Shown here: positions 3,822 through 41,177 of the stretch, piece after piece
Position numbering within the stretch: the stretch's first letter is position 1
How the letters are laid out: each line of letters opens with the position of its first letter
Assembly: GCA_041666685.1 (NCBI GenBank)
Contig: JBAYGJ010000002.1
Coordinates: 1 to 55,788, forward strand
Length of the DNA: 55,788 nt
Reading direction: 5' to 3'
From: Patescibacteria group bacterium
GTDB lineage: Bacteria > Patescibacteriota > Patescibacteriia > UBA10025 > JAHIVO01
Position numbers and translations under genes: made by a program
The notes under the pieces: generated by a model
Told to the model about the DNA's origin: nothing
Databases searched by the model: none
The model's input: the letters and a program-made list of their open reading frames with translations, nothing else

Positions 3822-6095
3822 ATGTCTAAGATCGAAAAGTTTTCTACAGAAATCGCCGGCCGCGAGCTGACTTTTGAAGTCGGCCGATTCGCCGGCCAGG
3901 CCAATGCCGCCTGTGTCGTGCAGTATGGCGATACGGTCGTACTCGCTACGGCTGTCATGAGCAAAAATACGCGCGAAGGCATCGATTACTTCCCGCTCCT
4001 CGTTGATTACGAAGAGAGGCTGTATGCCGCCGGGAAAATTAAAGGCTCGCGTTTCATCAAACGCGAAGGACGGCCTACTGACGAAGCAATCCTGACTTCC
4101 CGTCTGGTAGACCGATCAATCCGCCCGTTGTTCAATCAGTCAAGCCGGCAGGACGTGCAGGTGGTGCTGACCGTATTGTCCGTCGACCAGGAGAATGATC
4201 CTGATATCATTTCACTTCTGGCGGCCTCATGCGCGCTGTCGATTTCCAATATTCCCTGGAGCGGCCCGGTGGCCGGCGTACGTATCGGCCAGATCAACGG
4301 CGAGTGGGTGCTGAATCCGACCTATGCGGCCCGTGAAAAAAGCGTCATGGACCTGGCCGTGATCGGGAAAGCTGATAAAATTACCATGATCGAGGCCGGC
4401 GCGCTCCAGATGTCCGAAGATACCATGTATGCCGGTATGGAGTTTGCGCAGAAGCATATCGCTAAACTCATTTCTTTCATCAATGACATCCAGACGAAGA
4501 TCGGCAGGCCGAAAGAGTCTATTGCCTCTACGGGACCGACGGAAGAGGAGAAAGCTAAGTCGGAAAAACTGAAGGAAAAAGTAAAGAATTTCTGTCAGGC
4601 CAAGATCGGGTCAGTTTTTGAACATAAGGACCGGCATGCCCAGGGCGAGGCGATGGATGCCCTCCGGACCCAACTGGAAGAAGTACTCAAAGCGGATAAT
4701 GAAGTTACGAAAGAAGAGCGGGCCAAAGGGCTTAAAATGGTGGATGGCATATATGAGGTAGAGTCCCGGCGCATGGTACTGGAAGAAGGCCGGCGCGTTG
4801 ATGGCCGGGCAGTAGATGAAATCCGTCCGTTATCGGCTGATGTGGCATTACTCCCCCGCACGCATGGTTCCGGTTTATTCAACCGCGGTGAAACCCAGGT
4901 ATTATCAGTAGTTACGCTCGGATCCCCAGGTGACGAACAGACGATGGACTCAATGGAAGAGTCTGGTAAAAAGCGTTTTATGCATCATTATAATTTTCCG
5001 GGCTTTTCCACCGGTGAGGTGGCTCCTGTCCGATCGCCAGGCCGCCGCGAAATTGGCCATGGCGCGTTGGTAGAAAAAGCCCTGTCCCAAGTGATGCCCG
5101 CCAAGGATAAGTTCCCCTATACGATTCGTGTCGTATCGGAAGTGCTGTCATCAAACGGCTCAAGTTCGCAGGCATCGTGCTGCGGTTCGTCATTGGCGCT
5201 GATGGATGCCGGCGTGCCGATTCTCGATCCGGTAGCCGGTATTGCGATGGGTTTGATTTCCGACGAAAAAGACCCGTCACGATTCAAGGTGCTGACAGAT
5301 ATCCAGGGCATTGAGGATCATAATGGTGATATGGATTTCAAGGTGGCCGGTACTAAGAATGGCATCACGGCCATCCAGATGGACGTGAAACTGGACGGCA
5401 TTTCGCTCGAAGTGGCCAGACAGGCACTTGATGGCGCCAAGAAAGCCCGCTTGCAGATATTGGATGTGATGACAAAAGCCATCCCGGCTCCGCGGGCCGA
5501 GCTGTCAAAATATGCGCCGCGCATCACCATGCTGAAGATCAATCCGGAACTGATCCGCGAAGTGATCGGCAAGGGCGGCGAAACGATCAATAAGATCATT
5601 GATGAATGCGGCGGAGCTGATGTCATCAAGATTGATATTGAGGATGATGGTCTGATATACATCACTTCGGCTCATGCTGACATGGCGAAGAAGGCTGAAG
5701 ATTGGATCCAGAATATCGTTAAAGAAGTATTGCCGGGAGAAATATATGAAGGAACGGTGACGCAGATCCTGAAAGACCGCAACAGCGGCGGTGAAATCGG
5801 CGCGGTCGTGGAAATAGCGCCAGGCAAGGACGGCATGGTGCACATTTCGGAATTTTCTCAGGGACGTATCAGGAATGTTTCTGATGTCGTACATGTGGGG
5901 CAAAAGATAAAAGTCAAAGTGGTTGACGTGGACAAGGAGCGGGGCCGGACGAGTCTGTCGGTCAAGGCTTTGGGGACGGACAGTGATTTGGTCATCCCGC
6001 CGTCAGCTCTTGATACGTCAGGCGGTTTTGACCGAGGCGGATCCCGCGGACGCCCGAGCGGTGGTCGTCCCCCATTCAGACACGGCCCGAGATAA
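3822..6095 (+). CDS. pnp: polynucleotide phosphorylase with an RG-rich C-terminal tail
   Basis: Full-length PNPase architecture: two RNase PH domains, KH (GKGGETINKI) and S1 (GTVTQILK..GMVHISE). The ATG at 3822 is preceded by AAGGAAAAAAG. The rpsO-pnp synteny is classical. Confidence 0.95.
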   Translation: MSKIEKFSTEIAGRELTFEVGRFAGQANAACVVQYGDTVVLATAVMSKNTREGIDYFPLLVDYEERLYAAGKIKGSRFIKREGRPTDEAILTSRLVDRSIRPLFNQSSRQDVQVVLTVLSVDQENDPDIISLLAASCALSISNIPWSGPVAGVRIGQINGEWVLNPTYAAREKSVMDLAVIGKADKITMIEAGALQMSEDTMYAGMEFAQKHIAKLISFINDIQTKIGRPKESIASTGPTEEEKAKSEKLKEKVKNFCQAKIGSVFEHKDRHAQGEAMDALRTQLEEVLKADNEVTKEERAKGLKMVDGIYEVESRRMVLEEGRRVDGRAVDEIRPLSADVALLPRTHGSGLFNRGETQVLSVVTLGSPGDEQTMDSMEESGKKRFMHHYNFPGFSTGEVAPVRSPGRREIGHGALVEKALSQVMPAKDKFPYTIRVVSEVLSSNGSSSQASCCGSSLALMDAGVPILDPVAGIAMGLISDEKDPSRFKVLTDIQGIEDHNGDMDFKVAGTKNGITAIQMDVKLDGISLEVARQALDGAKKARLQILDVMTKAIPAPRAELSKYAPRITMLKINPELIREVIGKGGETINKIIDECGGADVIKIDIEDDGLIYITSAHADMAKKAEDWIQNIVKEVLPGEIYEGTVTQILKDRNSGGEIGAVVEIAPGKDGMVHISEFSQGRIRNVSDVVHVGQKIKVKVVDVDKERGRTSLSVKALGTDSDLVIPPSALDTSGGFDRGGSRGRPSGGRPPFRHGPR

Positions 6096-9075: not shown

Positions 9076-10470
9076 ATGGGACAGGAAAATGACATTATCC
9101 AGGCGGTGAAGCAGATCTGTGAAGAAAAAAATATTTCAATGGAGTCAGTCGTTGAAACTATCGAGGCAGCGTTGGCGGTGGCCTATCGCAAGGATTTTGG
9201 CGAGAAAAACCAGAATATCAAGGTTGAGTTTGAACTGGCCAAAGCCAAGTCCAGGGTGTTTGACGTCAAGACGGTTACGACTGATGAAAAATTTGAACTG
9301 ACCGAAAAACTGAAGGAAGAGAAAAAAGCCCAGGAAGAGGCTGCGGCAGCTGAGGGTAAGCCGCTAGAACCGGACATGTCCGGGCGGGATACTGCCGGCC
9401 AGAATGAGGCAGGCGAAAATGAAGAGGATAAATTTGAACGGTTTAATCCGAAGACTGAAATAACCTTGACGGAAGCCAAGAAGATCAAAAAGAGTTCAAA
9501 GGTTGATGATGTGATAAAGACTGAATTGTTCCCGCCGGCCGCGTACGGCCGTATGGCGGCACAGACTGCCAAACAGGTGATTATCCAACGGCTGCGCGAA
9601 GCCGAGCGTGAAAATATCTACAAAGAGTACAAGGGCAAGGAAGGTGACGTGATCAATGGAACGATTCAACGGGTGGAAGGCCGGATGGTACTGGTTGACC
9701 TGGGCCAGACGATTGCCTTATTGCCGCCGCCCGAGCAGATACCACGCGAACGGTACGTGCCGAACCAGCGCTTACGGTTTTTTGTGGCCGGCGTGAATAC
9801 CACCTCCAAAGGTCCGGAGATAATTTTATCCCGGGCGCATCCGGATATGGTCAGGAAACTATTCATGCTGGAAGTGCCGGAAATTGCCAGCGGTTCAGTG
9901 GAAATAAAGGCGCTAGCCCGCGAAGCAGGATCCCGCACTAAGGTAGCTGTATCGACGACCCAGCGGAATATTGATCCCGTCGGCTCATGCGTCGGCCAGC
10001 GCGGCTCACGCGTCCAGACCATCATCTCAGAAATCGGCGGGGAGAAGATCGACATCATCGAATGGGACGCTAATCCGGTTCGGTTCATCTCCAATGCGTT
10101 ATCGCCGGCGAAGGTCCTGAGCGTAAAAATCAACGAAGAGGAGAAAACAGCTCTTGCAGAAGTAAAAGAGGATCAGCTGTCTTTAGCGATCGGTAAAGCT
10201 GGCCAGAATGTGCGTTTATCCGCCAAACTGACCGGCTGGAAGATCGACATCATTTCGGATACCGGCGAAAAGGTTACGGAAAAAAATACCGATGCCGTGG
10301 AAGTGAAAAAAAATGAAACGACTGACCCAATGCCTGAAGCTGCGGTTACGCCGGAAGCCAGCGCAGAGCCGGAAGTAAGTCCGGCGACAGTTGCTGAAAC
10401 CCCGTCCGAGGTTTCAGCAGCCACACCGGCATCAGAGGAGCCGGCCAAGCCTGAAGAGACAAAAGAATAA
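9076..10470 (+). CDS. nusA: transcription termination/antitermination factor NusA with an internal charged insert and a PE-rich tail
   Basis: N-terminal NusA domain, S1 ([19 protein letters not shown]) and two KH domains (GSRTKVAV.. and [17 protein letters not shown]). About 90 aa of low complexity sits after the NTD, with an acidic/proline tail. Confidence 0.9.
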
Positions 10471-10495
10471 TTATTTAATAAATAATCATCTGATT

Positions 10496-12490
10496 ATGTC
10501 ATTGCCTCTCATTCTCGCACTTGGGGCAGCTGCCCTGGCCATCGTGTATGGCGCCATATTGATCCGCTGGATTATTCGTCAGCCAAAAGGCGACGATAAA
10601 ATGCAATCCATCGCCAAAGCAATCCAAGAAGGAGCGAGCGCGTATTTGAACCGCCAATATCGCACGGTTGGCCTGATTGCCATCGTAGTATTCATTGTTT
10701 TATGGCTCCTTATTGATTTAAAGACTGCTCTGGGCTTCCTAGTCGGCGCGGTATTATCGGCATTGGCCGGCTACATCGGGATGAATGTTTCCGTACGGGC
10801 GAATGTACGTACTGCAGAAGCGGCCAAACAGGGTTTAGCTCGGGCGTTATCCGTTTCTTCAAAAGGCGGAGCTGTAACCGGTTTGCTGGTTGTGGGCCTC
10901 GGTTTGCTCGGAGTGGCCGGTTACTATGCCATCACGAAAGATGTTAAGGCCCTGATTGGTTTGGGCTTTGGCGGAAGCTTGATTTCGATCTTTGCGCGGC
11001 TGGGCGGCGGCATCTATACGAAAGCGGCTGATGTCGGCGCTGACCTAGTCGGTAAAGTAGAGGCGGGCATCCCTGAGGATGACCCCCGCAATCCGGCGGT
11101 GATTGCCGACAATGTAGGAGATAATGTTGGCGATTGCGCCGGTATGGCAGCGGATCTTTTTGAGACCTACGCCGTGACTGCGGTAGCGTCGATGCTGCTC
11201 GGGTCGCTGTTGTTTGTCGGTTTTGAAAATGCACTCCTCTATCCGCTGGTGATCGGCGGCCTGTCAATTATCACGTCTATTATCGGAATATTTTTTATCC
11301 GCCTGGGCAAGTCTCAAAATATCATGGGGGCGCTCTATAAAGGGATGATTGCCGCTGGCGTCCTGTCGGCCATCGCATTTTATCCGCTGACCCGTTGGCT
11401 CATGCAGGATAATGGCCGGTATACAGTCAATAATATTTATCTTGCCTCATTGGTCGGCCTGATTGTGACAGCCTTACTGGTCGTCATTACTGAATATTAT
11501 ACATCGACAAAATACGGTCCGGTTCGCGGAATTGCGAAAGCGTCCGAGACCGGGCATGCGACGAATATTATTAACGGTCTGGCAGTTTCCATGAAAGCGA
11601 CTGCCCTGCCGGTGCTGGTTATCGGCGGTGGAGTTTTGGCGGCGTATGCGTTAGCGGATATTTATGGAATTGCCATTGCAGTCATGAGCATGCTCTCATT
11701 GACCGGGATTATTGTGGCTATCGATGCGTACGGGCCGATCACCGACAATGCCGGAGGCATAGCCGAAATGGCAGAATTGCCAAAATCCGTACGTGATATT
11801 ACCGATCCGCTGGACGCTGTTGGAAATACGACGAAGGCTGTGACCAAGGGATACGCAATAGGTTCAGCGGGGTTGGCGGCTTTAGTGCTTTTCGCTTCAT
11901 ATACTCAGGAATTAGCCGATCGAGGCATGAATTTACTTTTTAATCTGGAAGACCCGAAAGTTATTGTCGGGTTATTTATCGGCGGACTTATGCCGTACCT
12001 ATTCGGGGCGCAAGCCATGCAGGCAGTAGGCAAAGTAGCCGGATATGTTGTTGAAGAGGTGCGGCGTCAGTTTCGCGAGAACAAGGGTATTATGGCAGGC
12101 ACTTCAAAACCGGATTATGCCAAGACAGTGGATATCGTTACGAAAGGTGCCATCAAACAAATGATCGTCCCAGCGCTGATGCCAGTGGTCGTTCCGATTG
12201 CGGTCGGATGGCTGATGGGCCCGGTTGCCCTTGGCGGCTTGCTGGTGGGCAGTATCGTTACCGGTATTTTTGTGGCGATTTCCATGACTACGGGCGGTGC
12301 GGCCTGGGATAATGCAAAAAAATATATTGAAAGCGGAGCATTTGGCGGCAAGGGATCGACGGCGCACCAGGCTGCGGTCACCGGCGATACGGTAGGAGAT
12401 CCATACAAGGACACGGCCGGGCCGGCAATTAATCCGATGATTAAAATCCTGAACATTGTCGCGCTGTTGATTATCGGTTTCATTATCTAA
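10496..12490 (+). CDS. hppA: membrane-bound K+/H+-translocating pyrophosphatase
   Basis: Multi-pass membrane protein with [37 protein letters not shown] and [15 protein letters not shown] signatures. Start taken at ATG 10496, after the nusA stop. Confidence 0.93.
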
Positions 12491-13858: not shown

Positions 13859-15310
13859 ATGGAATGGAAAACACTTTCCCATTTACCGGCCAGCGACATC
13901 CGTGAGATGCAAAATGACATCTTGCGTAAATTTGTGCGGCACCAGTTACCGTATTCCCCTTTTTATCGCGCCATGTTTGAAAAAAACAAGATTAGTTTTG
14001 ACGACATCAGAACTGTAGATGATCTGCAGAAATTGCCCTTTTCCGACAAGTCGGATGTCGCACCGACTGCGGACGATCCCGGAAAGTCACGGAAATTTAT
14101 CCTCCAGCCCGATGAGCATTTGATAAAGAAATATGCGTCAAAGAAGTTTCTGGTGAATGTTCTCTGGGGCAAGATGACTAAGCAGGACGTGAAACGGAAA
14201 CTGGAATTTTTATATAAGCCGATCCATATCCATTTCACCACAGGCCGGACCGCCTTGCCGACTTCGTTTGTTTATTCTGGCAGTGATGTCGAGGTGTTGA
14301 AAGAGGCCGGCGAACGCATGCTTGACACGGCTGGCATCACCAGGGATTTGGTAGCCATTAATGCCTTTCCTTATGCCCCCCATTTGGCGTTCTGGCAGGC
14401 GTACAACGCCCTGACCAAGCTGGGCATGACCTCTGTGCATACCGGCGGCGGCAAAATCATGGGGACGCAAAAAATTCTCGATGCGACCGAGAAGTTAAAG
14501 GCCGGTGTACTGACAGTTATCCCCGGATATGGGTACCATCTGTTGCGAGAGGCGGTCAAACAAGGAAGGAATTTTTCCGGACTGAAATTTATCATCAGCG
14601 GCGGCGAGCGAGCCAGCGCCGGGCAGAAGGTAAAAGTGCACGAGCTTTTGGAGCAGCTGCAGGCCAAAGATGCGCAATATCTGTCCACCTATGCCATGAC
14701 CGAAGGCAAGACTGCCTGGATCCAATGCCACGAGCGTTCCGGTTACCATACGTATCCTGACTTGGAGATCTGGGAAGTTATAGACAAGAACGGTAAGGTA
14801 GTCAAGCCGGGCGAGCCAGGGGAATTAGTTATCACCACGATCGGCTGGCACGGGTCAGTCGTCGTCCGTTACCGCACCGGCGATATGACGGAAGGGATGG
14901 ACTATGAACCTTGTCCGCATTGCGGCAAGACCGTCCCGCGCATCCGCATGGATATCCAACGCAATTCAGAAATAAAAGAATTCCACCTGACAAAAGTGAA
15001 AGGTGAATTAATCAATTTAAATGATTTTTATCCGGTCATGTCCGGTATTGCCGAGATTGATGAATGGCAGGTGGAGATCCGCAAGAAAAATAATGATCCG
15101 TATGATACTGATGAGTTGGTGGCGTATGTAGCCGTGAAACCCGGCGCATCATTCAGCCAGGTCAAAGCAGAAGTCGACAAGAAAGTCCGCAGTGAAATGT
15201 TTGTCACAGTTCTGATTGAAGAAAAGAAATTGGCCGAGCTGGAGCAGATGCTTGGCACAGAGACAGAGCTGAAGGAAAAGCGGATTATCGACAAGCGGCC
15301 AAAGGTATAA
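13859..15310 (+). CDS. PaaK/F390-synthetase-like adenylate-forming enzyme (acyl-CoA/AMP ligase)
   Basis: The N-terminal pattern (..YSPFYR..F....I.F.DI..V.DL.KLPF..K.DV) and YRTGD motif are typical of the phenylacetate-CoA ligase family. Confidence 0.7.
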   Translation: MEWKTLSHLPASDIREMQNDILRKFVRHQLPYSPFYRAMFEKNKISFDDIRTVDDLQKLPFSDKSDVAPTADDPGKSRKFILQPDEHLIKKYASKKFLVNVLWGKMTKQDVKRKLEFLYKPIHIHFTTGRTALPTSFVYSGSDVEVLKEAGERMLDTAGITRDLVAINAFPYAPHLAFWQAYNALTKLGMTSVHTGGGKIMGTQKILDATEKLKAGVLTVIPGYGYHLLREAVKQGRNFSGLKFIISGGERASAGQKVKVHELLEQLQAKDAQYLSTYAMTEGKTAWIQCHERSGYHTYPDLEIWEVIDKNGKVVKPGEPGELVITTIGWHGSVVVRYRTGDMTEGMDYEPCPHCGKTVPRIRMDIQRNSEIKEFHLTKVKGELINLNDFYPVMSGIAEIDEWQVEIRKKNNDPYDTDELVAYVAVKPGASFSQVKAEVDKKVRSEMFVTVLIEEKKLAELEQMLGTETELKEKRIIDKRPKV

Positions 15311-15313
15311 AAG

Positions 15314-16213
15314 ATGGCACGCGATATTATCATCATGATCGAAGGCGGGGCCATGCTTGGCGTGTTCGGCGCCGGCGTAGTGACGGCCTTCCAGGAGGCG
15401 GACATCTACCCCCGGATACATAGTGTTTATGGAGCTTCAGCCGGCGCCCATGATTTGGCGTATTTTTTGGCAGCCCAGGCGGACAGCCGGCAGGCGCGGG
15501 TCGGCTCAAGCATTTATTATGAGGATTTAATCGGCAGGCGATTTATCAACCCAAGTCGTTTTTTTGTTTACATCTGGGACCTTATCGTACGCAGGTTCAG
15601 GCCCCGCCACGCTGTACGCCATATTCTTGATCTTGATTATATCATCCACGTCGAGCAGACTGTTAAAAAACTTGATGTTCGTGCCCTCGTGGGCCAACTG
15701 ATCCCATTTTATATCGCGGCCTACGATGTTGCCAGGGGGCAGGTTGTCTTTTTGGACGGCAAGCAGGACACGTTCCAAACGTTGAAAGCTTCCTCCACAG
15801 CTTCGCCGTTTTATGCCAATACCGTCGAGGTTCGGGGGCGCCAATATCTCGACGGCGGGTTGATCCAAGATTGGGATGTCGAAAAGATTGTTCGTGAACA
15901 TCCGGAAAAGAAGATTGTGTATGTCATCAATAATAAAAAGAACCCTTGGTTTACGGGTTTCGTGTTGCCCTATTATTTGTTAGAAGCTGTACTTAACCTG
16001 ATGTGTTTCGGATGGAAAATTTCTTGGTCACGACTAAAAAATTCTTTTGCCTATGAGACCAAGAAAAAATTATTCAAATTTCCGAACGTGACCGTGGTGA
16101 GTAATGTTCTGGAGTTCACGAACAGTATTACCGATAAGGCAGTGTTGCTCAGCATTTACGAGCACGGCCTCGTAAAAGGCAGGGAGGCTTTGGTTAGGTT
16201 AGGTTTAGCTTGA
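15314..16213 (+). CDS. patatin-like phospholipase
   Basis: Oxyanion GGAMLGVFGAGV, nucleophile elbow YGASAGA (GXSXG) and catalytic DGG. Confidence 0.8.
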   Translation: MARDIIIMIEGGAMLGVFGAGVVTAFQEADIYPRIHSVYGASAGAHDLAYFLAAQADSRQARVGSSIYYEDLIGRRFINPSRFFVYIWDLIVRRFRPRHAVRHILDLDYIIHVEQTVKKLDVRALVGQLIPFYIAAYDVARGQVVFLDGKQDTFQTLKASSTASPFYANTVEVRGRQYLDGGLIQDWDVEKIVREHPEKKIVYVINNKKNPWFTGFVLPYYLLEAVLNLMCFGWKISWSRLKNSFAYETKKKLFKFPNVTVVSNVLEFTNSITDKAVLLSIYEHGLVKGREALVRLGLA

Positions 16214-25745: not shown

Positions 25746-26213
25746 TTATTGTAACATGTTTTTACTGGGGAGAGGCGAAATCACAACCAGCCAGCGTGTT
25801 GATCTTCCGCCAGCAGCGGACCAGCGTCGGAAAAAGTCTGGTTTTGATAATTTACAATGAGAGCCATTCCAAGGGTCCGCCAGGATAATCGACTTCTTAT
25901 TCAGGTGGCGCACGACACTGTAATGCAGTTCGTTGTCGGATGGTTCACGAAAAAGCACGATAATTTTCATTTTGAGAAACAAGGCCTTTTGGATATCTGA
26001 TAAAAGGGCACGGCTTTTAACGCTAGTGTGTAAGCCAAACCGTTCAAGGATTTTTTGTATGTTTTTTCTTGTAGTGCCTGTCCGAAATTTTGTGCGCGCC
26101 AGTCGTGCGATCGTGCGCTGGGGAACTCGGATGCCGAAACACCCTAAAACCATTTGGACGGATGCCGGGCCGCACCAATAGTCTTTCTGTTGTTTATGGT
26201 AGTTGAGGATCAT
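25746..26213 (-). CDS. papain-fold cysteine peptidase, C39-like (Peptidase_C39_2-type)
   Basis: DYWCGPASVQMVL (catalytic Cys context) and a later HYSVV..ADPWNG (His/Asp). No signal peptide. It ends 4 nt before the next gene. Confidence 0.5.
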   Translation of the reverse strand: MILNYHKQQKDYWCGPASVQMVLGCFGIRVPQRTIARLARTKFRTGTTRKNIQKILERFGLHTSVKSRALLSDIQKALFLKMKIIVLFREPSDNELHYSVVRHLNKKSIILADPWNGSHCKLSKPDFFRRWSAAGGRSTRWLVVISPLPSKNMLQ

Positions 26214-33057: not shown

Positions 33058-33081
33058 GAAAAGGGTAATTCTGCTCCCAAA

Positions 33082-33153
33082 TGCCGAGGGCCAGAATCGG
33101 ACTGGCGACGCAAGGATTTTCAGTCCTTCGCTCTACCACTGAGCTACCTCGGC
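33082..33153 (-). tRNA. tRNA-Phe (anticodon GAA), no encoded CCA
   Basis: Reverse complement: GCCGAGG-TA-GCTC-AGTGGTA-GAGC-G-AAGGA-CTGAAAA-TCCTT-GCGTC-GCCAG-TCCGATT-CTGGC-CCTCGGC-A. Confidence 0.9.
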
Positions 33154-33163
33154 ATGTGACCGT

Positions 33164-33261
33164 CCTCGGCATTTGGGAGTAATTAGCACCATTCGCTCTT
33201 CCGGGGCGCTTCTATGGGCGCGCCCGCTCTGCTTGTGCAGAGCCCACTTCGCTACCTCGGC
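33164..33261 (-). repeat. two upstream copies of the tRNA-Phe 5' acceptor strand separated by GC hairpins
   Basis: cctcggc (33164-70) plus atttgggag (33171-79) is the exact complement of the tRNA 3' strand plus trailer, giving a 16-bp alternative helix. gctacctcggc (33251-61) is 11/11 identical to 33143-53 and is followed on the minus strand by the hairpins GCTCTGCACAAGCAGAGC and GGGCGCGCCC. Confidence 0.65.
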
Positions 33262-33300
33262 GGATTCACCGGCATAAGCGAGTATTATGATACGTGTCCA

Positions 33301-33377
33301 TGGTGGGGACGAGAGGAGTTGAACCTCTGACCTTCACAATGTCAATGTGACGCTCTAACCAACTGAGCTACGTCCCC
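33301..33377 (-). tRNA. tRNA-Val (anticodon GAC), CCA encoded
   Basis: Reverse complement: GGGGACG-TA-GCTC-AGTTGGTTA-GAGC-G-TCACA-TTGACAT-TGTGA-AGGTC-AGAGG-TTCAACT-CCTCT-CGTCCCC-A-CCA. Confidence 0.9.
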
Positions 33378-33383
33378 GTGGTC

Positions 33384-33466
33384 TGGTGGGCGACCCAGGA
33401 GTTGCACCCTTCGACTTCGCCACCTCGATTTCACTCGGTGGCTTCGCTCAGGGTAGGCCTGGGACC
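33384..33466 (-). repeat. tRNA-Ile 3'-third copy (with full CCA) carrying a ~50-nt insert between the T-stem 5' strand and the T-loop
   Basis: 33385-33408 is 24/24 identical to 33518-33541, and cctgggacc (33458-66) equals 33540-48. The insert carries a split cccttcgacttcgc / cttcgctcaggg motif around the hairpin GCCACC..GGTGGC. Confidence 0.8.
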
Positions 33467-33519
33467 GCTCAAGTATCCAATAACAAATTTCTTCAGCATG
33501 AATGCTATTATTCCCTCGG

Positions 33520-33593
33520 TGGGCGACCCAGGAGTTGCACCTGGGACCTCGTCATTATCAGTGACGCGCTCTAACTACCTGAGCTAGTCGCCC
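33520..33593 (-). tRNA. tRNA-Ile (anticodon GAT); only CC of CCA encoded
   Basis: Reverse complement: GGGCGAC-TA-GCTC-AGGTAGTTA-GAGC-G-CGTCA-CTGATAA-TGACG-AGGTC-CCAGG-TGCAACT-CCTGG-GTCGCCC-A. Leader TTCCCTCAGT and trailer ACCGAGGGAA add 10 bp (one A/C mismatch) to the acceptor helix. Confidence 0.9.
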
Positions 33594-33623
33594 ACTGAGG
33601 GAACAAGTATGGCTACCTGCTTG

Positions 33624-33655
33624 CCCCGAGCGAAGTCGAGGGGAGCTAGTCGCCC
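33624..33655 (-). repeat. 13-nt tRNA-Ile 5' copy fused to the shared GC motif
   Basis: gagctagtcgccc (33643-55) is identical to 33581-93. The adjacent ccccgagcgaagtcgagggg (33624-43) is the shared motif in the orientation complementary to the copy inside the 3' fragment. Confidence 0.7.
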
Positions 33656-33756
33656 ATGCCTTTTTTCCAACAAAAAAACTACAACCTGATGGTACTATTG
33701 TAGTTTATCATACATAAAAAATCAAATGACTGGAGGGATGCTTATAAACCCCTTAG

Positions 33757-33787
33757 CAACCAGCAGGTGGTAAAGAATACGAATCAA
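33757..33787 (-). promoter_or_regulatory. 3' strand of the 16S rRNA processing stem
   Basis: caaccagcaggtggtaaagaatacgaatcaa is nearly perfectly complementary to 35389-35418 on the other side of the 16S gene. Confidence 0.7.
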
Positions 33788-33851
33788 CTCAATGATGTAT
33801 ATCTATACGTACGTCAGAGACGCACGAATATCGACAAATTGGTTACTCCTT

Positions 33852-35347
<1,496 letters not shown>

Positions 35348-35388
35348 TAGTTGGAGTTTTTAACTAGAAAAACTCCCAAAAAAAGGAA

Positions 35389-35625: not shown

Positions 35626-36273
35626 TCAAGCAGTGCCTTTTGCGCGATGAGTGCGCCATTTGGCGATTGCCTGGTGGTCCCCAGACAGCAGGATTTTGGG
35701 TACCGATTGGCCTTTAAATCTTTCCGGCCGGGTGAAATGCGGGTATTCCCGATATTTCAGTCCTTTGGAAAATGTTTCGTCTTTTGGAGAGTCGGCATGA
35801 CCCAACACGCCCGGCAGCAGTCTTGATATGGCATCGACGATGGTCATGGCCGGCAGTTCCCCGCCGGTCAGGACATATTTGCCGGTGCTAATTTCCGCGT
35901 CGATATATTTTTTTATCCGTTCGTCCACCCCTTCGTAATGTCCGCAGATCAGAATCAGTTGGTCAATCGCAGAATATTGTTTGGCTGTCAGTTGAGTAAA
36001 CATCTTCCCTTTCGCCGCCATGAGGAAGGTTTTGGAATGTTTTTTTCGCTTGATAGATTTCAGGCATCGGTAAAGCGGATCGATTTTCATGACCATGCCC
36101 GGGCCGCCGCCGTACGGACGGTCGTCGACAGTCCTGTGTTTGTCTGACGTAAAGTCGCGCAGGTTATGAATTTTTATAGTGATCAGCTTTTTATTCTGCG
36201 CACGTTTAATGATGCTCTCATTAAAGTAAGATTTAAATATTTCCGGGAAGATGGTGATGATGTCAAATTGCAT
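35626..36273 (-). CDS. trmD: tRNA (guanine37-N1)-methyltransferase
   Basis: MQFDIITIFPEIF.., DDRPYGGGPGMVM, ILICGHYEGVDERI, GDYVLTGGELPAM-like signatures. Confidence 0.93.
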   Translation of the reverse strand: MQFDIITIFPEIFKSYFNESIIKRAQNKKLITIKIHNLRDFTSDKHRTVDDRPYGGGPGMVMKIDPLYRCLKSIKRKKHSKTFLMAAKGKMFTQLTAKQYSAIDQLILICGHYEGVDERIKKYIDAEISTGKYVLTGGELPAMTIVDAISRLLPGVLGHADSPKDETFSKGLKYREYPHFTRPERFKGQSVPKILLSGDHQAIAKWRTHRAKGTA

Positions 36274-36282
36274 GAAATAAAT

Positions 36283-38274
36283 TTAGAGTATTTTATTCAA
36301 CCTCTCTAGTTTTGATTTTGTTTCAAGGCTCAGTACTTTGGTAGTAATATATTTTAATTTATTTCTGTCAAATTCATACTTTACCCATTTATTAGTAATA
36401 GCCTGTTCTCTGAATGGGATAAGTATTTCCCTGGTTATATCGATTAGATTGAACATCCATTTAGTTCTGGTTGGCGTTTCGTGGTATTTTGTTAATAACG
36501 TGGTTTTTACGTGTTCAATCAGATTAATGATTAATTCGACAGTTAGATCAATCGCGCCGGATTTCCAAAGCAATTTGTTTATCTCAATTTTATCTTTGGC
36601 GCCTAGTTTTTTGTTCAGAGATTGGTATAGATATTGTCTTTCATCTGGTGTTAAAACCTGAGAATAGAGAGCTACTAAATATGCGATATCGGTTTTTCCT
36701 TCAATAATATCAGAGTGAGACACGCCTTTCATCCCCTTGCTCATTCCGGTAACTTCCTCGACAATTACATAGTCACCCAAATCATTCCTGATCATTTGGA
36801 TAATCCCATAAAACATCCCGATTTTCGGCGCTATGTCATTAATTTCGTTAGCGTTTAAGATTTGCGCTTCTTTATTGCCAGCCCTCGCCGATAAATCTCC
36901 TATGGCTTCAAAGAATCCGCCGCAAATCCCATAGATCCGTTGAATGTAGAGGTCAATCACCTCGTCGAACTTTTTATTTTTTAATAATTTCTTTTTACTT
37001 ACGGAATTAAAAGTAAGTTGTAAATCAATGACTTGGCCGCGATACATCAAGAGATTACACTCATTCATAATTCCAGCCAATTTTTTTCCAATCGTCAAAT
37101 TTTCGGAAGCTATGATAAAAAAGTATTTTAAGGTGAGCAAATGGCCCAAAATTCCGGTGTAAATTGCATCACGGCGTGTAAATTTTTTCCAGACAGTTTC
37201 AAGCTTTTGCCGATAACTTGAATTATCGAAAACATCGTCAAGGGCGTACGTGTTCATCCAATTATATAATTCCACAACCACGCCGAGATCATAAGGAAAC
37301 GATATTGATTTAACAAATTTTTTTTCAAGAACTAAGTGATGGTTGACTAAATCATATAATTCAAAGAATAATTCTGGACGGACTTTTTTTACTCCATGGT
37401 GCCTGCCTTCAACTTTGGTAAAAGGCGGATTTATGGAATGCTCCAGACAATTAAGAATTTTTTCCGGTGATTCATCCCACGATTCAATTACGGCAGCAAT
37501 GCCGGAATCTATTTCTTTTTCTGTCAGTTTGTTCTTGAAGTATTTTGAAATGTTCCTCTCAACCTGACAAACCAAAAGCGAAACTTTGTCTGAATTAAAC
37601 TGAATTTTTTTCAGAATCTGCAATTCTTTGAGTATTTGCTTATCAGAAAGCTTATTAGTAAAGACCATTTTCCCCAGACTCTCTTTGTTAGCAATTTCTC
37701 GGGCCCTTTCGTCAACCTTATAATTGATAATTCCAGAACGTGAATAAATTGATCGATAATAGTCATCCAGGTATTCTGAAATCTTTGACTCAAATTGATT
37801 TTCATTTTGTGCAAATAGTACAGTTGTGTGCACAAATTTTTGATGATTTTTTACTATTTCCGCGACATTTTTATTGGCAGTAAGAATTGCGTTAATGCTA
37901 AAGCTAACCATCCATTGCGAGGCGTAGTAATCAACATGTTCTACGTCTTCGATAAGCATTATAACTGGTTTGCTTTTGGAAATCGCATATCCGCACTCCC
38001 AAGTGCTGTCTGTCCCCGTTGGAGAACCGTCTAGTGTTTTATATTTTTTCATATAAACAACCAGTGCGTCAGCATGATTGATAGCATCCAGGTCAAGACA
38101 AGCAATACCAATTGGTATAAACCGGTGATCATCTGGCGTATCTTGAGTCCCCGGTTCAAACAAGCCAATGCTTCTGTTGAAAAATCGTGAATATTTATTA
38201 CTAAAATATTCCCTCCAGAGTGTTATACCGCTGGCAAGGTAGAGATGATATTTGAATTGTTTTTCTTTCTGCAT
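36283..38274 (-). CDS. fusion protein: nucleoside 2-deoxyribosyltransferase-like N-domain plus polyprenyl-synthase-like (isoprenoid synthase fold) C-domain
   Basis: N-terminus: LYLASG.. and DALVVY..GTDSTWECGYAISKSKPVIML (NDT-family pattern). C-terminus: YALDDVFDNSSYRQ (DDxxD-type first Asp-rich motif), IIQMIRNDLGDY (degenerate second motif) and IIEGKTDIAYLVAL (GK.T lid). The gene is visibly more AT-rich than its neighbours. Confidence 0.5.
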   Translation of the reverse strand: MQKEKQFKYHLYLASGITLWREYFSNKYSRFFNRSIGLFEPGTQDTPDDHRFIPIGIACLDLDAINHADALVVYMKKYKTLDGSPTGTDSTWECGYAISKSKPVIMLIEDVEHVDYYASQWMVSFSINAILTANKNVAEIVKNHQKFVHTTVLFAQNENQFESKISEYLDDYYRSIYSRSGIINYKVDERAREIANKESLGKMVFTNKLSDKQILKELQILKKIQFNSDKVSLLVCQVERNISKYFKNKLTEKEIDSGIAAVIESWDESPEKILNCLEHSINPPFTKVEGRHHGVKKVRPELFFELYDLVNHHLVLEKKFVKSISFPYDLGVVVELYNWMNTYALDDVFDNSSYRQKLETVWKKFTRRDAIYTGILGHLLTLKYFFIIASENLTIGKKLAGIMNECNLLMYRGQVIDLQLTFNSVSKKKLLKNKKFDEVIDLYIQRIYGICGGFFEAIGDLSARAGNKEAQILNANEINDIAPKIGMFYGIIQMIRNDLGDYVIVEEVTGMSKGMKGVSHSDIIEGKTDIAYLVALYSQVLTPDERQYLYQSLNKKLGAKDKIEINKLLWKSGAIDLTVELIINLIEHVKTTLLTKYHETPTRTKWMFNLIDITREILIPFREQAITNKWVKYEFDRNKLKYITTKVLSLETKSKLERLNKIL

Positions 38275-38343
38275 ATCAGTAAATAGTATACCACATTCAA
38301 CAACAAAACCGCACTGATGTGCGGCTTTGCTTATAAAACTATT

Positions 38344-38670
38344 TTATATTTTCAGATCGTCAACCGCTGAGGTGTCTACCGCTTCGCTTGGTGCAGAGGC
38401 GCGAGGGCCTTTGCGGTAGCCTTCCGGTTCGTAGATCTTCAGGTTGACCCGAGCGTGGTTCTTTGCGCCGACTACCCGCAACAGCGTGCGGATGGCCTTG
38501 GCAGTCTGGCCCTGGCGGCCGATAACCTGGCCGAGATCGGCTGGGTTGACCTTGAGGGTAATCAGGACGCCCATTTCATCGACAGTCCGGTCGGACGAAA
38601 CGTCATCCGGCTTGTCGACGAGCGACTTCACCACGTACTCTACGAATTCCTGGTCGTGTTCTTTTGCCAT
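38344..38670 (-). CDS. KH-domain RNA-binding protein (YlqC/UPF0109 family)
   Basis: ..LKVNPADLGQVIGRQGQTAKAIRTLL.. (GXXG KH motif). Its position next to rpsP is typical. Confidence 0.85.
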   Translation of the reverse strand: MAKEHDQEFVEYVVKSLVDKPDDVSSDRTVDEMGVLITLKVNPADLGQVIGRQGQTAKAIRTLLRVVGAKNHARVNLKIYEPEGYRKGPRASAPSEAVDTSAVDDLKI

Positions 38671-38770: not shown

Positions 38771-40645
38771 TCAAATTGCGCTGCACTCAGTGACTGCCTG
38801 GACAGGCCAGGCGCAGCTCCATTTACCGAATTTGTTGATGTAGCACGTATCATTGACCCGGACGGCAAAGTTTTGCGTTGAGGTGTAGGTTTCGTGCTGC
38901 ACTGTGGCGGTAAAGGAATAATTTCCAGAGCTGAACTGGTTTGTCGGCCAGGCAAAAGTATTTTGTACTCCCGAACAGGTATTTGTCTGAAAAAACTTTG
39001 GAGAATTGACGCTATATTGAAATGGCAGATTCATCGGATTGGCGGCGATAAGTTTGACCGTGGCCGGGTACAATTCATTGACTACAATTGGGCTGATCGG
39101 CTGGAGGATGGGGACGGCAGAGACGGGCGAATAATCGTAATTAGTTATTTCGCCGGTAGAAAAATTATAGATCGGGCTGGAGGTATCGCAGATACTATTG
39201 CGATCAGTGTCGTCACAGCCATTGGCCGGGTTATTGTGCATGCTCCAGAAATTTCCGACACCATTTTCGTCATACTGATTGTTGGTTCCCATATCGTATG
39301 ACGGCTTGACGTATTCCGGGTCGCCGATGAAATTAATGTAGTTTTTTATAAACACGTTGTCATGTGTACCGGACTGGAAAGCTGTTCCCGTATAGACTGT
39401 CATGTAATTATTTTCTATACGGTTGTTGTGAGGATTATAGAAAATGCCATTGGTTGACCCGCTGCCTGATATGACGCCCCAATCTACGCCAGTATAGGTA
39501 TTATAGGAAACCGTATTATCATGGGAGTCATGCAAAAGGTTTATCCCGGGCCCCCAAAAATCAATGATTGTGTTGTGGTGAATCGTGTTAAATTTTGCCG
39601 CGCCGGTGTTTTTGAAATCGTCCGAATCTTTGTCGCCATCAAAGGTGACGCCAGCTCCAGTCCAGACTTCATGCGGGCCAATAATGGTATTGTTGTAGAT
39701 GTTGTTATAGGCCGACCCATGGTTGATCCAGATGGCATTGGGGGAGGCGGCGCTACTTGGGAATTTACCCAGTGTATTCCTATACACCTGGTTATAATTG
39801 GAATTGAACGCCAAGTTGATTCCGCCATTTGAGAAAAGCGTATTATCATGGATTCGGCTGTTTGATGCAAACTCCAAATCAATAGTCGGGAGCACGCTTT
39901 TATTGCCGGAGTTTTCCAGTCGGACATTATTATAGATCTCGCTATTAATGACAGAGCTGACTACCATGTCGATATAGGAACTTTGAGTGAAGGTGTTATT
40001 GAAGAGGGTTACTCGCATAGGCGGCTTCGGCGCGTGGTTAAATGAATCATACCCGCCTCCGACGTACATGCCGTACCCAAAACCACCGATGGTGCAGTTC
40101 TTGATGGTCAGGTTATCAGCACCTGTAGCAAAAATTCCGATTTTATTGTATGCGGGATTTGGCGCTGGGGCGCTGAAGTCGTAGTTACCAACCATGATGG
40201 AGCCGTTGCAGTCGAGCGTTACGTTCGCCGAGTAGATGCCGACAATAATATACGAAGTCGTTGTTCGGGTGTATGTCTTGTTGCACAACGTTAGAGTAAT
40301 GGGGGCGTCTGCAGGGTCATCGTAGATAAAGTATCCATTGGAAGATATATCAGGATCAATGCAGTCGGCCGGTTGGGCTGCAGCCATTGGTACGTTGATT
40401 CCGGGCTCGCTGTCCAGCAGAGCGGACGCCCGTAATGTATCCGATGGTGCCGCAGTCGGTAAGGCGGGATTTGTTTTTGGCAGTATGACTGGGAAATGGC
40501 GGGTAACTATCGGGGGGGTGATTGCCTCACTATCTGTACTGACTAAGAGGTACGGAACCGCTGCAGCCTGGGCTGATTGAGCAACCAAAATTCCCCCAAG
40601 GAGTAACATGGCGGACAATGAAACCGTGACTATTACGTTTTTCAT
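38771..40645 (-). CDS. secreted right-handed parallel beta-helix repeat protein (NosD/pectate-lyase-like)
   Basis: Signal peptide MKNVIVTVSLSAMLLLGGILVAQSAQAAA (ATG 40645). Repeated ..N.I..N.. turns (HDNTLFSNGGINL, YNNTIIGP, HHNTIIDFWGPGINL, HDNTVSYNTYTG), with a Cys-rich C-terminus. Confidence 0.65.
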   Translation of the reverse strand: MKNVIVTVSLSAMLLLGGILVAQSAQAAAVPYLLVSTDSEAITPPIVTRHFPVILPKTNPALPTAAPSDTLRASALLDSEPGINVPMAAAQPADCIDPDISSNGYFIYDDPADAPITLTLCNKTYTRTTTSYIIVGIYSANVTLDCNGSIMVGNYDFSAPAPNPAYNKIGIFATGADNLTIKNCTIGGFGYGMYVGGGYDSFNHAPKPPMRVTLFNNTFTQSSYIDMVVSSVINSEIYNNVRLENSGNKSVLPTIDLEFASNSRIHDNTLFSNGGINLAFNSNYNQVYRNTLGKFPSSAASPNAIWINHGSAYNNIYNNTIIGPHEVWTGAGVTFDGDKDSDDFKNTGAAKFNTIHHNTIIDFWGPGINLLHDSHDNTVSYNTYTGVDWGVISGSGSTNGIFYNPHNNRIENNYMTVYTGTAFQSGTHDNVFIKNYINFIGDPEYVKPSYDMGTNNQYDENGVGNFWSMHNNPANGCDDTDRNSICDTSSPIYNFSTGEITNYDYSPVSAVPILQPISPIVVNELYPATVKLIAANPMNLPFQYSVNSPKFFQTNTCSGVQNTFAWPTNQFSSGNYSFTATVQHETYTSTQNFAVRVNDTCYINKFGKWSCAWPVQAVTECSAI

Positions 40646-40772
40646 AAATGTATAGGTAATTAAATGCAAAAAATCCACTTAAGCATGAGTGGTGCTAAAG
40701 ATGACTAGGCCCCTTCAGTGAAACCTCTTATAAAGAAACACTGTTGATTAGGGAAATTTTTTTACTTTTTTG

Positions 40773-41177
40773 CTAGGCAGCTGGTTTAGCCTCGCCCGTT
40801 TCAGCTTTTGGCTGAGGCGTTTCTGGAACTGGTACCGGGACAGCCTCTGTTTTAGGCTCTACAGCTTTTGGGGCCGGTGCGGGCTCGGCAGATTTCGGAG
40901 CTTCTTCCTTCTTGCGGATGTTCGCCACCTTGATTTTCTCGCCAGTGATAAGTTTCTGGTCGATCAGCAGATTATGAACCACCCCGGAAGTGGAGGCACC
41001 CTTGGAAATCCAATGTTGGATACGCTCTTTTTTCAGCTCGACTTTATTGGTATGCGGGTCGTAGGTCCCGAGCAGTTCCAAATAGTCACCGACCGTGTCC
41101 TTGGCCTTTTCAGAAACGATGATCCGGAATACCGGATGTTTCTTTTTGCCGAATCTTGATAAACGAATAGTTAGCAT
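40773..41177 (-). CDS. rpsP: 30S ribosomal protein S16 with an Ala/Pro/Lys/Glu-rich C-terminal extension
   Basis: MLTIRLSRFGKKKHPVFRIIVSEKAKDT..GTYDP is the S16 core. About 50 extra residues follow (KKEEAPKSAEPAPAPK..). Confidence 0.93.
   Translation of the reverse strand: MLTIRLSRFGKKKHPVFRIIVSEKAKDTVGDYLELLGTYDPHTNKVELKKERIQHWISKGASTSGVVHNLLIDQKLITGEKIKVANIRKKEEAPKSAEPAPAPKAVEPKTEAVPVPVPETPQPKAETGEAKPAA

Follow-up and report, generated by a model that had tools for sequence, protein, structure and literature searches.

Enzymes of the superfamily that includes nucleoside 2-deoxyribosyltransferases (NDTs), DNPH1 and MilB cleave N-glycosidic bonds, and canonical trans-isoprenyl diphosphate synthases carry a diphosphate-binding basic motif, motif I, which is assigned to isopentenyl diphosphate (IPP). 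In the fungal cytokinin fusions of isopentenyltransferase (IPT) and LOG, prenyl transfer and N-glycosidic cleavage stand on one polypeptide. The indole farnesyltransferases XiaM and Ord1 are soluble, have the synthase fold and move a prenyl group onto an acceptor other than IPP; the first of their Asp-rich motifs is conserved, the second is a "pseudo" motif (PMC12510300). UbiA is a membrane enzyme with an Mg2+/Asp-rich motif that ionises prenyl diphosphates (PMC7839719). Here we describe a gene that joins an NDT-like domain to a domain of the trans-isoprenyl-diphosphate-synthase fold, and that lies directly upstream of trmD in a bacterium of the Patescibacteria group (assembly GCA_041666685.1, contig JBAYGJ010000002.1; the whole stretch of DNA analysed, 55,788 nucleotides, is called the window hereafter). 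The fusion is real, conserved, rare and patchily distributed, and the gene is very probably intact, laterally inserted and part of a conserved fusion family. What is new is a conserved and functionally suggestive combination of known folds, for which the database names are generic; full-text searching of the literature found no description of an NDT/prenyl-synthase fusion or of an NDT-like/UbiA pairing.

Architecture of the fusion protein

The 663-aa open reading frame (ORF) reported by the initial annotation is confirmed; it is intact and starts with ATG. The gene, its domains and its motifs are the following:

36283..38274, minus strand: NDT-like / trans-isoprenyl-diphosphate-synthase-like fusion gene (P0001); 663-aa ORF, homologues and AlphaFold2 (AF2) model
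37750..38274, minus strand: NDT-superfamily domain, aa 1-175, alpha/beta Rossmann-like; Pfam, profile, Foldseek and model
37987-38016, minus strand: GTDSTWECGY motif with D89, W92, E93, G95 and Y96 invariant; 34-sequence alignment
37405..37749, minus strand: helical linker and first synthase-fold helices, aa 176-290, the most variable part of the family; alignment and model
36286..37404, minus strand: divergent trans-isoprenyl-diphosphate-synthase-fold domain, aa 291-663; Pfam, Foldseek and profiles
37375..37395, minus strand: motif I, GVKKVRP, with G294, K297, R299 and P300 invariant; alignments
37225..37239, minus strand: first Asp-rich motif, DDVFD, with D346, D347 and D350 invariant, then invariant R355; alignments
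36919..36930, minus strand: GICG, with invariant I450-C451 where canonical synthases have Lys-Thr (GKTG); alignments
36772..36786, minus strand: pseudo-second Asp-rich motif, NDLGD, with N497 and D498 invariant and D501 nearly so; alignments
36457..36480, minus strand: ETPTRxKW, a family-specific C-terminal motif; alignment

Pfam searches and AlphaFold/Foldseek comparisons, which had been suggested as checks together with the first description of the gene, assign a synthase fold to the C-terminal half and an NDT-type fold to the N-terminal half. Both halves are highly conserved, with a mean column identity of 58% in the 34-sequence alignment of the family. The C-terminal domain (C-domain) is matched by PF00348 (polyprenyl_synt) with 50.4 bits (cut-off 27) over aa 294-563. 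The AF2 model of the whole protein, built on the same alignment, has a predicted local distance difference test score (pLDDT) of 87.4 and a predicted template modelling score (pTM) of 0.86, with helices spanning aa 176-285 of the linker region. Foldseek with this model gave 144 PDB matches at E <= 0.001, the best 50 of which are all prenyl diphosphate synthases or elongation domains (template modelling score by target, TM(target), 0.6-0.78), with 1wy0, 3mzv, 4gp1 and 3oyr at the top (TM(target) about 0.7). Profile matches of the C-domain include geranylgeranyl diphosphate (GGPP) synthases, farnesyl diphosphate (FPP) synthases and others, and its identity to solved synthases is just 14-19%.

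With trans-isoprenyl diphosphate synthases such as the Pyrococcus horikoshii GGPP synthase (1wy0), the C-domain shares the all-alpha fold, motif I, the first DDxxD with its following Arg, GQxxD (G413, Q414, D417) and the (E)GK motif (K516, D522, G526, K527). All motifs quoted in the initial annotation, among them GTDSTWECGY, DDVFD and NDLGD, stand at verified coordinates. Yet the protein differs from these synthases in having NDLGD for the second DDxxD and Ile-Cys for the Lys-Thr of GKTG, the latter seen against "ISGKTGALFEA" of 1wy0 and "KTKTARY" of canonical archaeal synthases; both departures are common to every aligned family member. Further differences are about 45 extra C-terminal residues and the NDT-like domain fused at the N-terminus. 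The ETPTRxKW motif (P601 and K605 invariant; E599, T600, T602, R603 and W606 in at least 90% of the sequences) matches no column of canonical synthases in the alignment. Judged by its motifs, the C-domain keeps the Mg2+/diphosphate-binding apparatus and lacks two catalytic hallmarks of chain-elongating synthases. The loss of Lys-Thr and of the leading Asp in the second motif suggests a change in ordinary IPP condensation. In combining a first Asp-rich motif with a degenerate second one the C-domain is like XiaM and Ord1; this likeness concerns the state of the motifs, Ord1 being absent from the best 50 of the 144 Foldseek matches, and XiaM and Ord1 differ from the fusion protein in being single-domain actinomycete natural-product enzymes.

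Much of this evidence can also be read in another way, namely that the protein combines two independent activities, a short-chain prenyl diphosphate synthase (FPP or GGPP, e.g. for the undecaprenyl phosphate primer) and a nucleoside-salvage deoxyribosyltransferase or hydrolase, with domains joined by chance or for co-regulation. The PF00348 score above cut-off, the retention of motif I, the first DDxxD, GQxxD and (E)GK, and the predominance of GGPP and polyprenyl synthases among the best structural matches all fit such a synthase. Bacteria of the Candidate Phyla Radiation (CPR) make peptidoglycan and so need a prenyl primer, and a D-Ala-D-Ala ligase gene is present in the window. Against this stands, within the protein itself, the fact that Lys-Thr and the second motif's first Asp are invariably replaced; the distribution and the relatives of the family, treated below, bear on the same question.

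The N-terminal domain (N-domain) is more divergent. On aa 9-114, PF05014 scores 22.9 bits (cut-off 28.8) and PF15891 20.7 bits (cut-off 30), both below cut-off, and the assignment therefore needed extra support. A PF05014 match is precomputed for many full-length homologues, and close unfused relatives pass its cut-off (44.4, 31.6, 32.6 and 30.5 bits). The model of the N-domain alone (pLDDT 80.7) finds with Foldseek only NDT, DNPH1 or MilB structures among its best 15 PDB matches, which are modest (E 4e-4 to 8e-3, TM(target) 0.46-0.65). The N-terminal NDT-type domain of the initial annotation is hence upheld, while the Pfam scores of the protein itself do not reach the family: the N-domain can be placed in the NDT / DNPH1 / MilB superfamily, as a divergent member, and no more finely than that. 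It shares its fold with NDTs, DNPH1/Rcl and the cytidine monophosphate N-glycosidases MilB and BlsM (PF05014 superfamily), and with the superfamily also a Y-L-A-G-type first strand (Y12, L13, A14 and G16 nearly invariant in the 34 sequences) and the Glu in ..G-T-x-x-(x-x)-E-x-G-Y. In the family profile, E93 is aligned with the Glu of ..GTAFEVG.. / ..GTAFELG.. in the solved NDTs 2a0k and 6qai, and is the presumed nucleophile. Unlike NDTs (D-x-G-T-x-x-E), the fused family has the motif G-T-D-S-x-W-E, an extra W-M-V motif (W121-M122-V123, of which W-M is invariant in the 34 sequences), and a constant pairing of this domain with a prenyl enzyme. The fused family and both subfamilies of unfused relatives described below keep the pattern G-x-D-x-x-x-E-x-G and the W-M without exception.

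The general acid of classical NDTs is an Asp on the strand preceding the Glu motif. The Asp of "IADL" in 2a0k faces Tyr74 of the family, in an alignment that is weak (E about 0.1). Such divergence would be in keeping with a non-catalytic N-domain, acting as a nucleotide sensor or regulator (SLOG-like) or as an oligomerisation module that controls the prenyl enzyme, be it fused or UbiA. Folds of the NDT/SLOG/TIR type serve widely as ligand sensors, the SLOG protein of Thoeris reportedly being an example, and the N-domain is very divergent from catalytic NDTs, with Tyr at the aligned general-acid position. The invariant Glu, D89, G-x-D-x-x-x-E-x-G and W-M, however, form a catalytic-site pattern, which is suggestive rather than decisive, and we consider a purely regulatory N-domain quite improbable.

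A rare and patchy family

Among 5.8 billion proteins searched, 63 homologues were found, nearly all 655-685 aa long, 40-75% identical and of metagenomic origin. The named records say only "polyprenyl synthetase family protein" or "hypothetical" and stem from Parcubacteria, Paceibacterota, Kuenen-, Buchanan- and Vogelbacteria. A chimera of sequencing or assembly, i.e., two genes merged by error as the initial annotation had cautioned, is ruled out by these 63 homologues, which are full-length and come from independent samples; a further contig, obtained from a different sample, also encodes the identical protein. When the profile of the C-domain was searched against the same 5.8 billion proteins, it returned just family members and fragments on contigs of 1-2 kb, and no unfused relative.

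The fused type makes up only three clusters at 50% identity among 1.84 billion representatives, and 18 loci were found in 185,579 species genomes. The carriers named among these loci are Magasanikiibacteriota, Kazan, Buchananbacteria, Paceibacterota, Kuenenbacteria, Vogelbacteria, Doudnabacteria and members of the Patescibacteria group, and one locus belongs to a "Nanoarchaeota" metagenome-assembled genome. Five further records bear automatic labels, e.g. "uncultured archaeon" or "uncultured Gammaproteobacteria"; several records so labelled are probably CPR bins. Altogether, about 65 full-length homologues are known, probably all from Patescibacteria/CPR except for one from a DPANN archaeon. 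Rather than a widespread and already characterised family, which had been considered at the outset, we thus find a rare one on which the literature searches yielded nothing. Its rarity (18 of 185,579) also means that it cannot be a general CPR solution to the need for a prenyl primer, which counts against two independent activities.

The 22 other homologue loci lie in unrelated contexts: after recO, among phosphoenolpyruvate-utilising genes, after pheST, or near HEPN/nucleotidyltransferase genes. TrmB-type regulators recur in 3 of the 23 fused-family loci. Two peculiarities were observed in individual loci. The homologue P0015 (724 aa; L012, 5788-7962) is lengthened in frame at its N-terminus by about 60 aa that contain an excisionase/MerR-type helix-turn-helix (PF12728); this could reflect a true DNA-binding fusion or a wrongly assigned start. 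Contig CAIOLF010000046.1 (109 kb) has two copies of the family gene in inverted orientation (L013, 24021-37994, and L014, 71081-85054 reversed) with identical statistics, which could reflect either a true inverted duplication or a palindrome created in assembly.

Unfused relatives and their prenyl-enzyme partners

Close unfused relatives of the N-domain were recovered by an exhaustive profile search as seven clusters of 163-193 aa (E 1e-38 to 1e-55), to which a genome scan added three loci. Neighbourhood counts are raw here and below, kinship between loci being uncorrected. In 7 of 7 informative loci, that is, those with enough flank, the unfused gene directly adjoins one or more UbiA genes (L106, L108, L109, L114 with four tandem UbiA genes, L117, L118, L121). 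These loci come from CPR bacteria and one Micrarchaeota archaeon, and the orientation of the pair varies: the archaeal genes are convergent and overlap, and the bacterial ones run in the same direction, 13-42 nt apart. The nearest NCBIfam families of the UbiA partner are chlorophyll synthase and DGGGP (digeranylgeranylglyceryl phosphate) synthase, both below cut-offs. The UbiA-paired systems share the N-domain subfamily of the fusion protein, and the UbiA partner is likewise an Mg2+/Asp-rich-motif enzyme, but an integral membrane protein of another fold. The archaeal locus L109 also encodes a type-2 IPP isomerase (372.8 bits; cut-off 281.3) and two canonical short-chain synthases. The latter were considered as kin of the C-domain and rejected, as they are canonical, keep D-D and K-T and are related at superfamily level only. 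Other loci of close relatives have genes for Lnt (in L118, with the order UbiA-UbiA-NDT-like-Lnt), an ICMT/PEMT-type methyltransferase, a PLD-type enzyme and a UppS-type cis-prenyltransferase, and Lgt and a GHMP kinase are further neighbours of the unfused relatives.

A more distant NDT-like subfamily was examined in 35 loci from DPANN archaea, CPR bacteria, Saprospiraceae, Sericytochromatia and Chlamydiota. UbiA is adjacent or one gene away in 12 of the 35, including L125, in which a 445-aa ORF (4001-5338) carries both an NDT-like domain (aa 4-101) and a UbiA-type membrane domain (aa 233-407). In three others (L122, L124, L127), the NDT-like gene overlaps or abuts a gene for a synthase-like protein with GLTG for GKTG and (I/M)NDLGD for DDxxD; these pairs are the unfused counterpart of the present fusion. 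The synthase-like neighbour in L156 has INDFDD. The change of N for D is thus found in all NDT-partnered synthase-like proteins, in contrast to the canonical synthases of L109.

Since members of one NDT-like clade are fused to a synthase fold, fused to UbiA, or adjacent to either, we see here Rosetta-stone and neighbourhood evidence for a shared pathway, which is the principal finding of the analysis. The idea of the initial annotation that nucleoside and prenyl chemistry belong together has in this way gained independent support, from unfused relatives that are repeatedly adjacent or fused to prenyl enzymes. Two independent activities become unlikely in this light, as the N-for-D change marks the other NDT-partnered synthase-like genes and not the canonical ones, and as the recurrent NDT-like/UbiA pairing, together with the fusion, argues for a functional link.

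Some neighbourhoods of the distant subfamily are of another kind. In Sericytochromatia and relatives (L143, L146-L151, L153, L154, L157), the NDT-like gene follows a short-chain dehydrogenase gene and a gene for an 822-aa protein without a Pfam match; the short-chain dehydrogenase context is conserved and stands in place of the prenyl enzyme. In ten archaeal/DPANN-type loci (L122, L124, L127, L129-L131, L133, L135, L136, L142), a 323-aa regulator with two AsnC-type helix-turn-helix modules is encoded divergently upstream of the NDT-like gene, and a 58% identical copy lies near the fused gene of L005 (11461-12438). TrmB-family regulators are found in the same place in L002, L011, L023, L109, L125, L134, L141 and L155.

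Proposed function

We propose, giving it an even chance, a single prenyl-nucleoside or prenyl-ribosyl pathway in which both domains act as a coupled pair. The C-domain would be a soluble, "all-alpha-helical" prenyltransferase, a counterpart of the membrane enzyme UbiA and not an ordinary FPP/GGPP synthase; XiaM and Ord1 set a precedent for such behaviour. D346, D347 and D350, together with N497, D498 and D501, would hold Mg2+ and the diphosphate of the prenyl donor, which would be ionised, and the carbocation would be captured by an acceptor. The N-domain, through E93, would break the N-glycosidic bond of a nucleoside or nucleotide, or exchange across it, and might thereby either supply the acceptor (a base or a (deoxy)ribosyl unit) or trim the prenylated product. 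The end product would probably be a prenylated nucleobase or nucleoside, or a ribosyl-isoprenoid lipid; any one specific product, taken singly, seems improbable. With motif I retained, an acceptor that bears a diphosphate or phosphate (IPP, a nucleotide, a sugar phosphate) is still plausible, and the lipid and isoprenoid neighbours of the unfused systems favour a membrane-associated end product.

Several observations weigh against such a coupling. The N-domain of the fusion protein scores under the Pfam cut-offs, and as Tyr74 aligns with the general-acid Asp of classical NDTs, it may follow another chemistry than they do. The retention of motif I also leaves room for chain elongation by the C-domain. 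All-versus-all clustering of ORFs over the 23 fused-family loci gave no conserved neighbour able to name a pathway, and 19 of the 35 loci of the distant subfamily have no UbiA or synthase-like gene nearby.

The cytokinin-type chemistry invoked in the initial annotation holds as an analogy only. A Pfam scan of the protein down to E = 1 gave only PF00348, PF05014, PF15891 and one chance match, with no IPT (P-loop) domain and no LOG-family match. The fusion protein is like the IPT-LOG fusions in the logic of a prenyl step joined to the cleavage of an N-glycosidic bond; it is unlike them (LOG motif PGGxGTxxE) in the fold used for the prenyl step, and the order of the domains is opposite.

It is also possible, if somewhat doubtful, that CPR bacteria and DPANN archaea share a hitherto unrecognised two-component module, an NDT-like N-glycosyl enzyme with a partner that ionises prenyl diphosphates, whose products would form a new metabolite class. 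The second component would be UbiA or a soluble, synthase-fold protein of the NDxxD type, fused to the first in the present gene, and the metabolite a prenylated nucleobase or nucleoside (a "terpene nucleoside") or a (deoxy)ribosyl-isoprenoid lipid made from scavenged nucleotides. The fusion protein carries the signature of such a module, G-x-D-x-x-x-E-x-G followed by W-M, together with a prenyl-enzyme partner.

Insertion of the gene upstream of trmD

On the minus strand of the window, the order of genes is smc, rpsP, a gene for a beta-helix protein, a KH-domain gene, the fusion gene and trmD. The features of this region are:

40773..41177, minus strand: rpsP
38344..38670, minus strand: KhpA-type KH-domain gene, upstream neighbour of the fusion gene; PF13083, 78.7 bits
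38305..38330, minus strand: terminator-like hairpin after the KH gene, GCAAAGCCGCAC-ATCA-GTGCGGTTTT; position kept in relatives that lack the fusion gene
38275..38290, minus strand: TATACT (-10-like) and 10 nt before the ATG of the fusion gene; precedes trmD in L027 and L028
36274..36282, minus strand: 9-nt spacer from the stop of the fusion gene to the ATG of trmD; downstream boundary of the insertion
35626..36273, minus strand: trmD, directly downstream of the fusion gene; PF01746, 182.8 bits, and synteny
33854..35350, minus strand: 16S rRNA gene, after trmD

The fusion gene has a GC content of 0.36 versus 0.491 in the remaining window, and its GC at third codon positions is 0.36 versus 0.53-0.70 in trmD, the KH gene, rpsP and smc; among 2-kb stretches of the 55.8-kb window, it has the lowest GC. 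The gene is thus indeed far more AT-rich than its neighbours, as first judged by eye. In other carriers of the family its GC is usually just 0.01-0.08 below that of the flanks, compared with a deficit of 0.13 here.

The closest relatives with a simple KH-trmD slot (L027 and L028) are 77-78% identical to the window in TrmD, 92-93% in the KH protein and 86-96% in Smc. They have no gene between KH and trmD, which are spaced by about 70 nt; in this spacer (L027, 6931-7000; L028, 3537-3607) a terminator-like hairpin is followed by TATACT, then by 7-8 nt and the ATG of trmD. The same layout of hairpin and TATACT in the window indicates that the fusion gene was inserted precisely between the promoter-like element of trmD and the trmD start. 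The empty site in L027 and L028 and the exact boundaries point to a recent lateral insertion, and the suggestion of lateral acquisition is strongly supported by composition, by the empty site, and by the absence of the fusion gene from all 80 loci around relatives of this TrmD.

The TATACT element presumably acts as a promoter. The inserted gene has cut trmD off from this ancestral promoter-like element, and the fusion gene is now presumably co-transcribed with trmD. Since TATACT lies only 7-10 nt from the start codon and the KH-trmD junction has no Shine-Dalgarno sequence, expression of trmD, and here of the fusion gene, may be leaderless or nearly so. The junction looks like a variable spot, as another insert of 2.9 kb fills it in L026 (4135-7000; TrmD 77% identical), consisting of a signal-peptidase-I-like gene and two unknown ORFs (214 and 172 aa). 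Over 65 loci, the gap between KH and trmD is shorter than 150 nt in 25 and of 400-900 nt in 20, the latter being long enough for rimM.

The position of the gene could suggest that it replaces RimM functionally or encodes a tRNA-modifying partner of TrmD. The initial annotation had placed it in a "rimM slot" and had seen no RimM-like ORF; the second point agrees with our Pfam search of the operon proteins from rpsP to trmD, which found no RimM-type / PRC-barrel domain. The slot itself has no functional meaning, however, as it is empty in the nearest relatives, and the 22 other homologue loci lie outside this operon. The position between KH and trmD in this genome is the sole point in favour of a RimM or TrmD role. 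Replacement of RimM is ruled out by synteny (the empty slot and 0 of 80 trmD loci), and with unrelated genes in the same slot of L026 we regard any such role as extremely unlikely.

An accessory, patchy, laterally transferred and AT-rich gene also brings to mind a defence or conflict effector, as the initial annotation had considered, with an NDT-like domain that depletes or cleaves nucleotides and a prenyl domain serving for membrane targeting or as a second effector module. NDT-like effectors of some retron systems are said to deplete or cleave nucleotides, and HEPN/nucleotidyltransferase genes lie near some homologues. Yet no PADLOC-DB 2.0 family matched at E <= 1, PHROGs gave one marginal NDT match only, and no conserved sensor, immunity or partner gene was found over the 23 loci. 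Moreover, the apparent co-transcription with the essential trmD from a housekeeping promoter-like element would be unlikely for a toxic effector, and the unfused relatives adjoin lipid and isoprenoid enzymes. We therefore hold a role in defence to be very unlikely and prefer the coupling of both domains in a prenyl-nucleoside or prenyl-ribosyl pathway.

Other features of the window

Downstream of trmD we found the 16S rRNA gene and not rplS, with which the conserved gene order had been expected to end. The 16S rRNA gene is followed by genes for tRNA-Ile(GAT), tRNA-Val(GAC) and tRNA-Phe(GAA) (33081..35350, minus strand, in all), with no 23S rRNA gene and no rplS downstream of trmD at this locus. 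The rRNA genes thus appear unlinked, and the usual trmD-rplS pair appears broken here. A contig in ENA with the same fusion gene stops within this 16S rRNA gene.

Between rpsP and KH lies a gene for a secreted-looking, right-handed beta-helix/NosD-like protein of 635 aa (38771..40678, minus strand). It is kept at the same position in the nearest relatives and is thus not a recent arrival, unlike the fusion gene. The protein diverges fast: its identity is 27-59%, whereas rpsP and KH on either side reach 85-93% in the closest relatives.

Other notable genes of the window (10391..12490 and 13859..16213, plus strand; 25746..26213, minus strand) encode a membrane H+-pyrophosphatase (898 bits), an AMP-binding enzyme and, after it, a patatin-like phospholipase, and a C39 peptidase domain that stands alone and adjoins three ORFs without a Pfam match. 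The window was also scanned for further prenyl genes, and no UbiA, synthase or TrmB gene was found in it.

Implications for CPR and DPANN biology

As a genomic event the locus is clear-cut: a foreign gene has come to lie between an essential gene and the promoter-like element in front of it. With its changes from KT to IC and from DDxxD to NDxxD, the family provides a natural example of a modified synthase-fold domain, which bears on the question of how prenyl synthases become prenyltransferases. For lipids and nucleotides, CPR bacteria and DPANN archaea are believed to rely on their hosts, and the greater part of their accessory genes lacks an explanation. The recurrent pairing of NDT-like and prenyl enzymes suggests that these organisms have a branch of isoprenoid chemistry not yet described, and a single soluble protein of 663 aa offers a direct test of such chemistry. 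If the proposed module exists, its product would be relevant to the membranes or the host interactions of these ultra-small symbionts.

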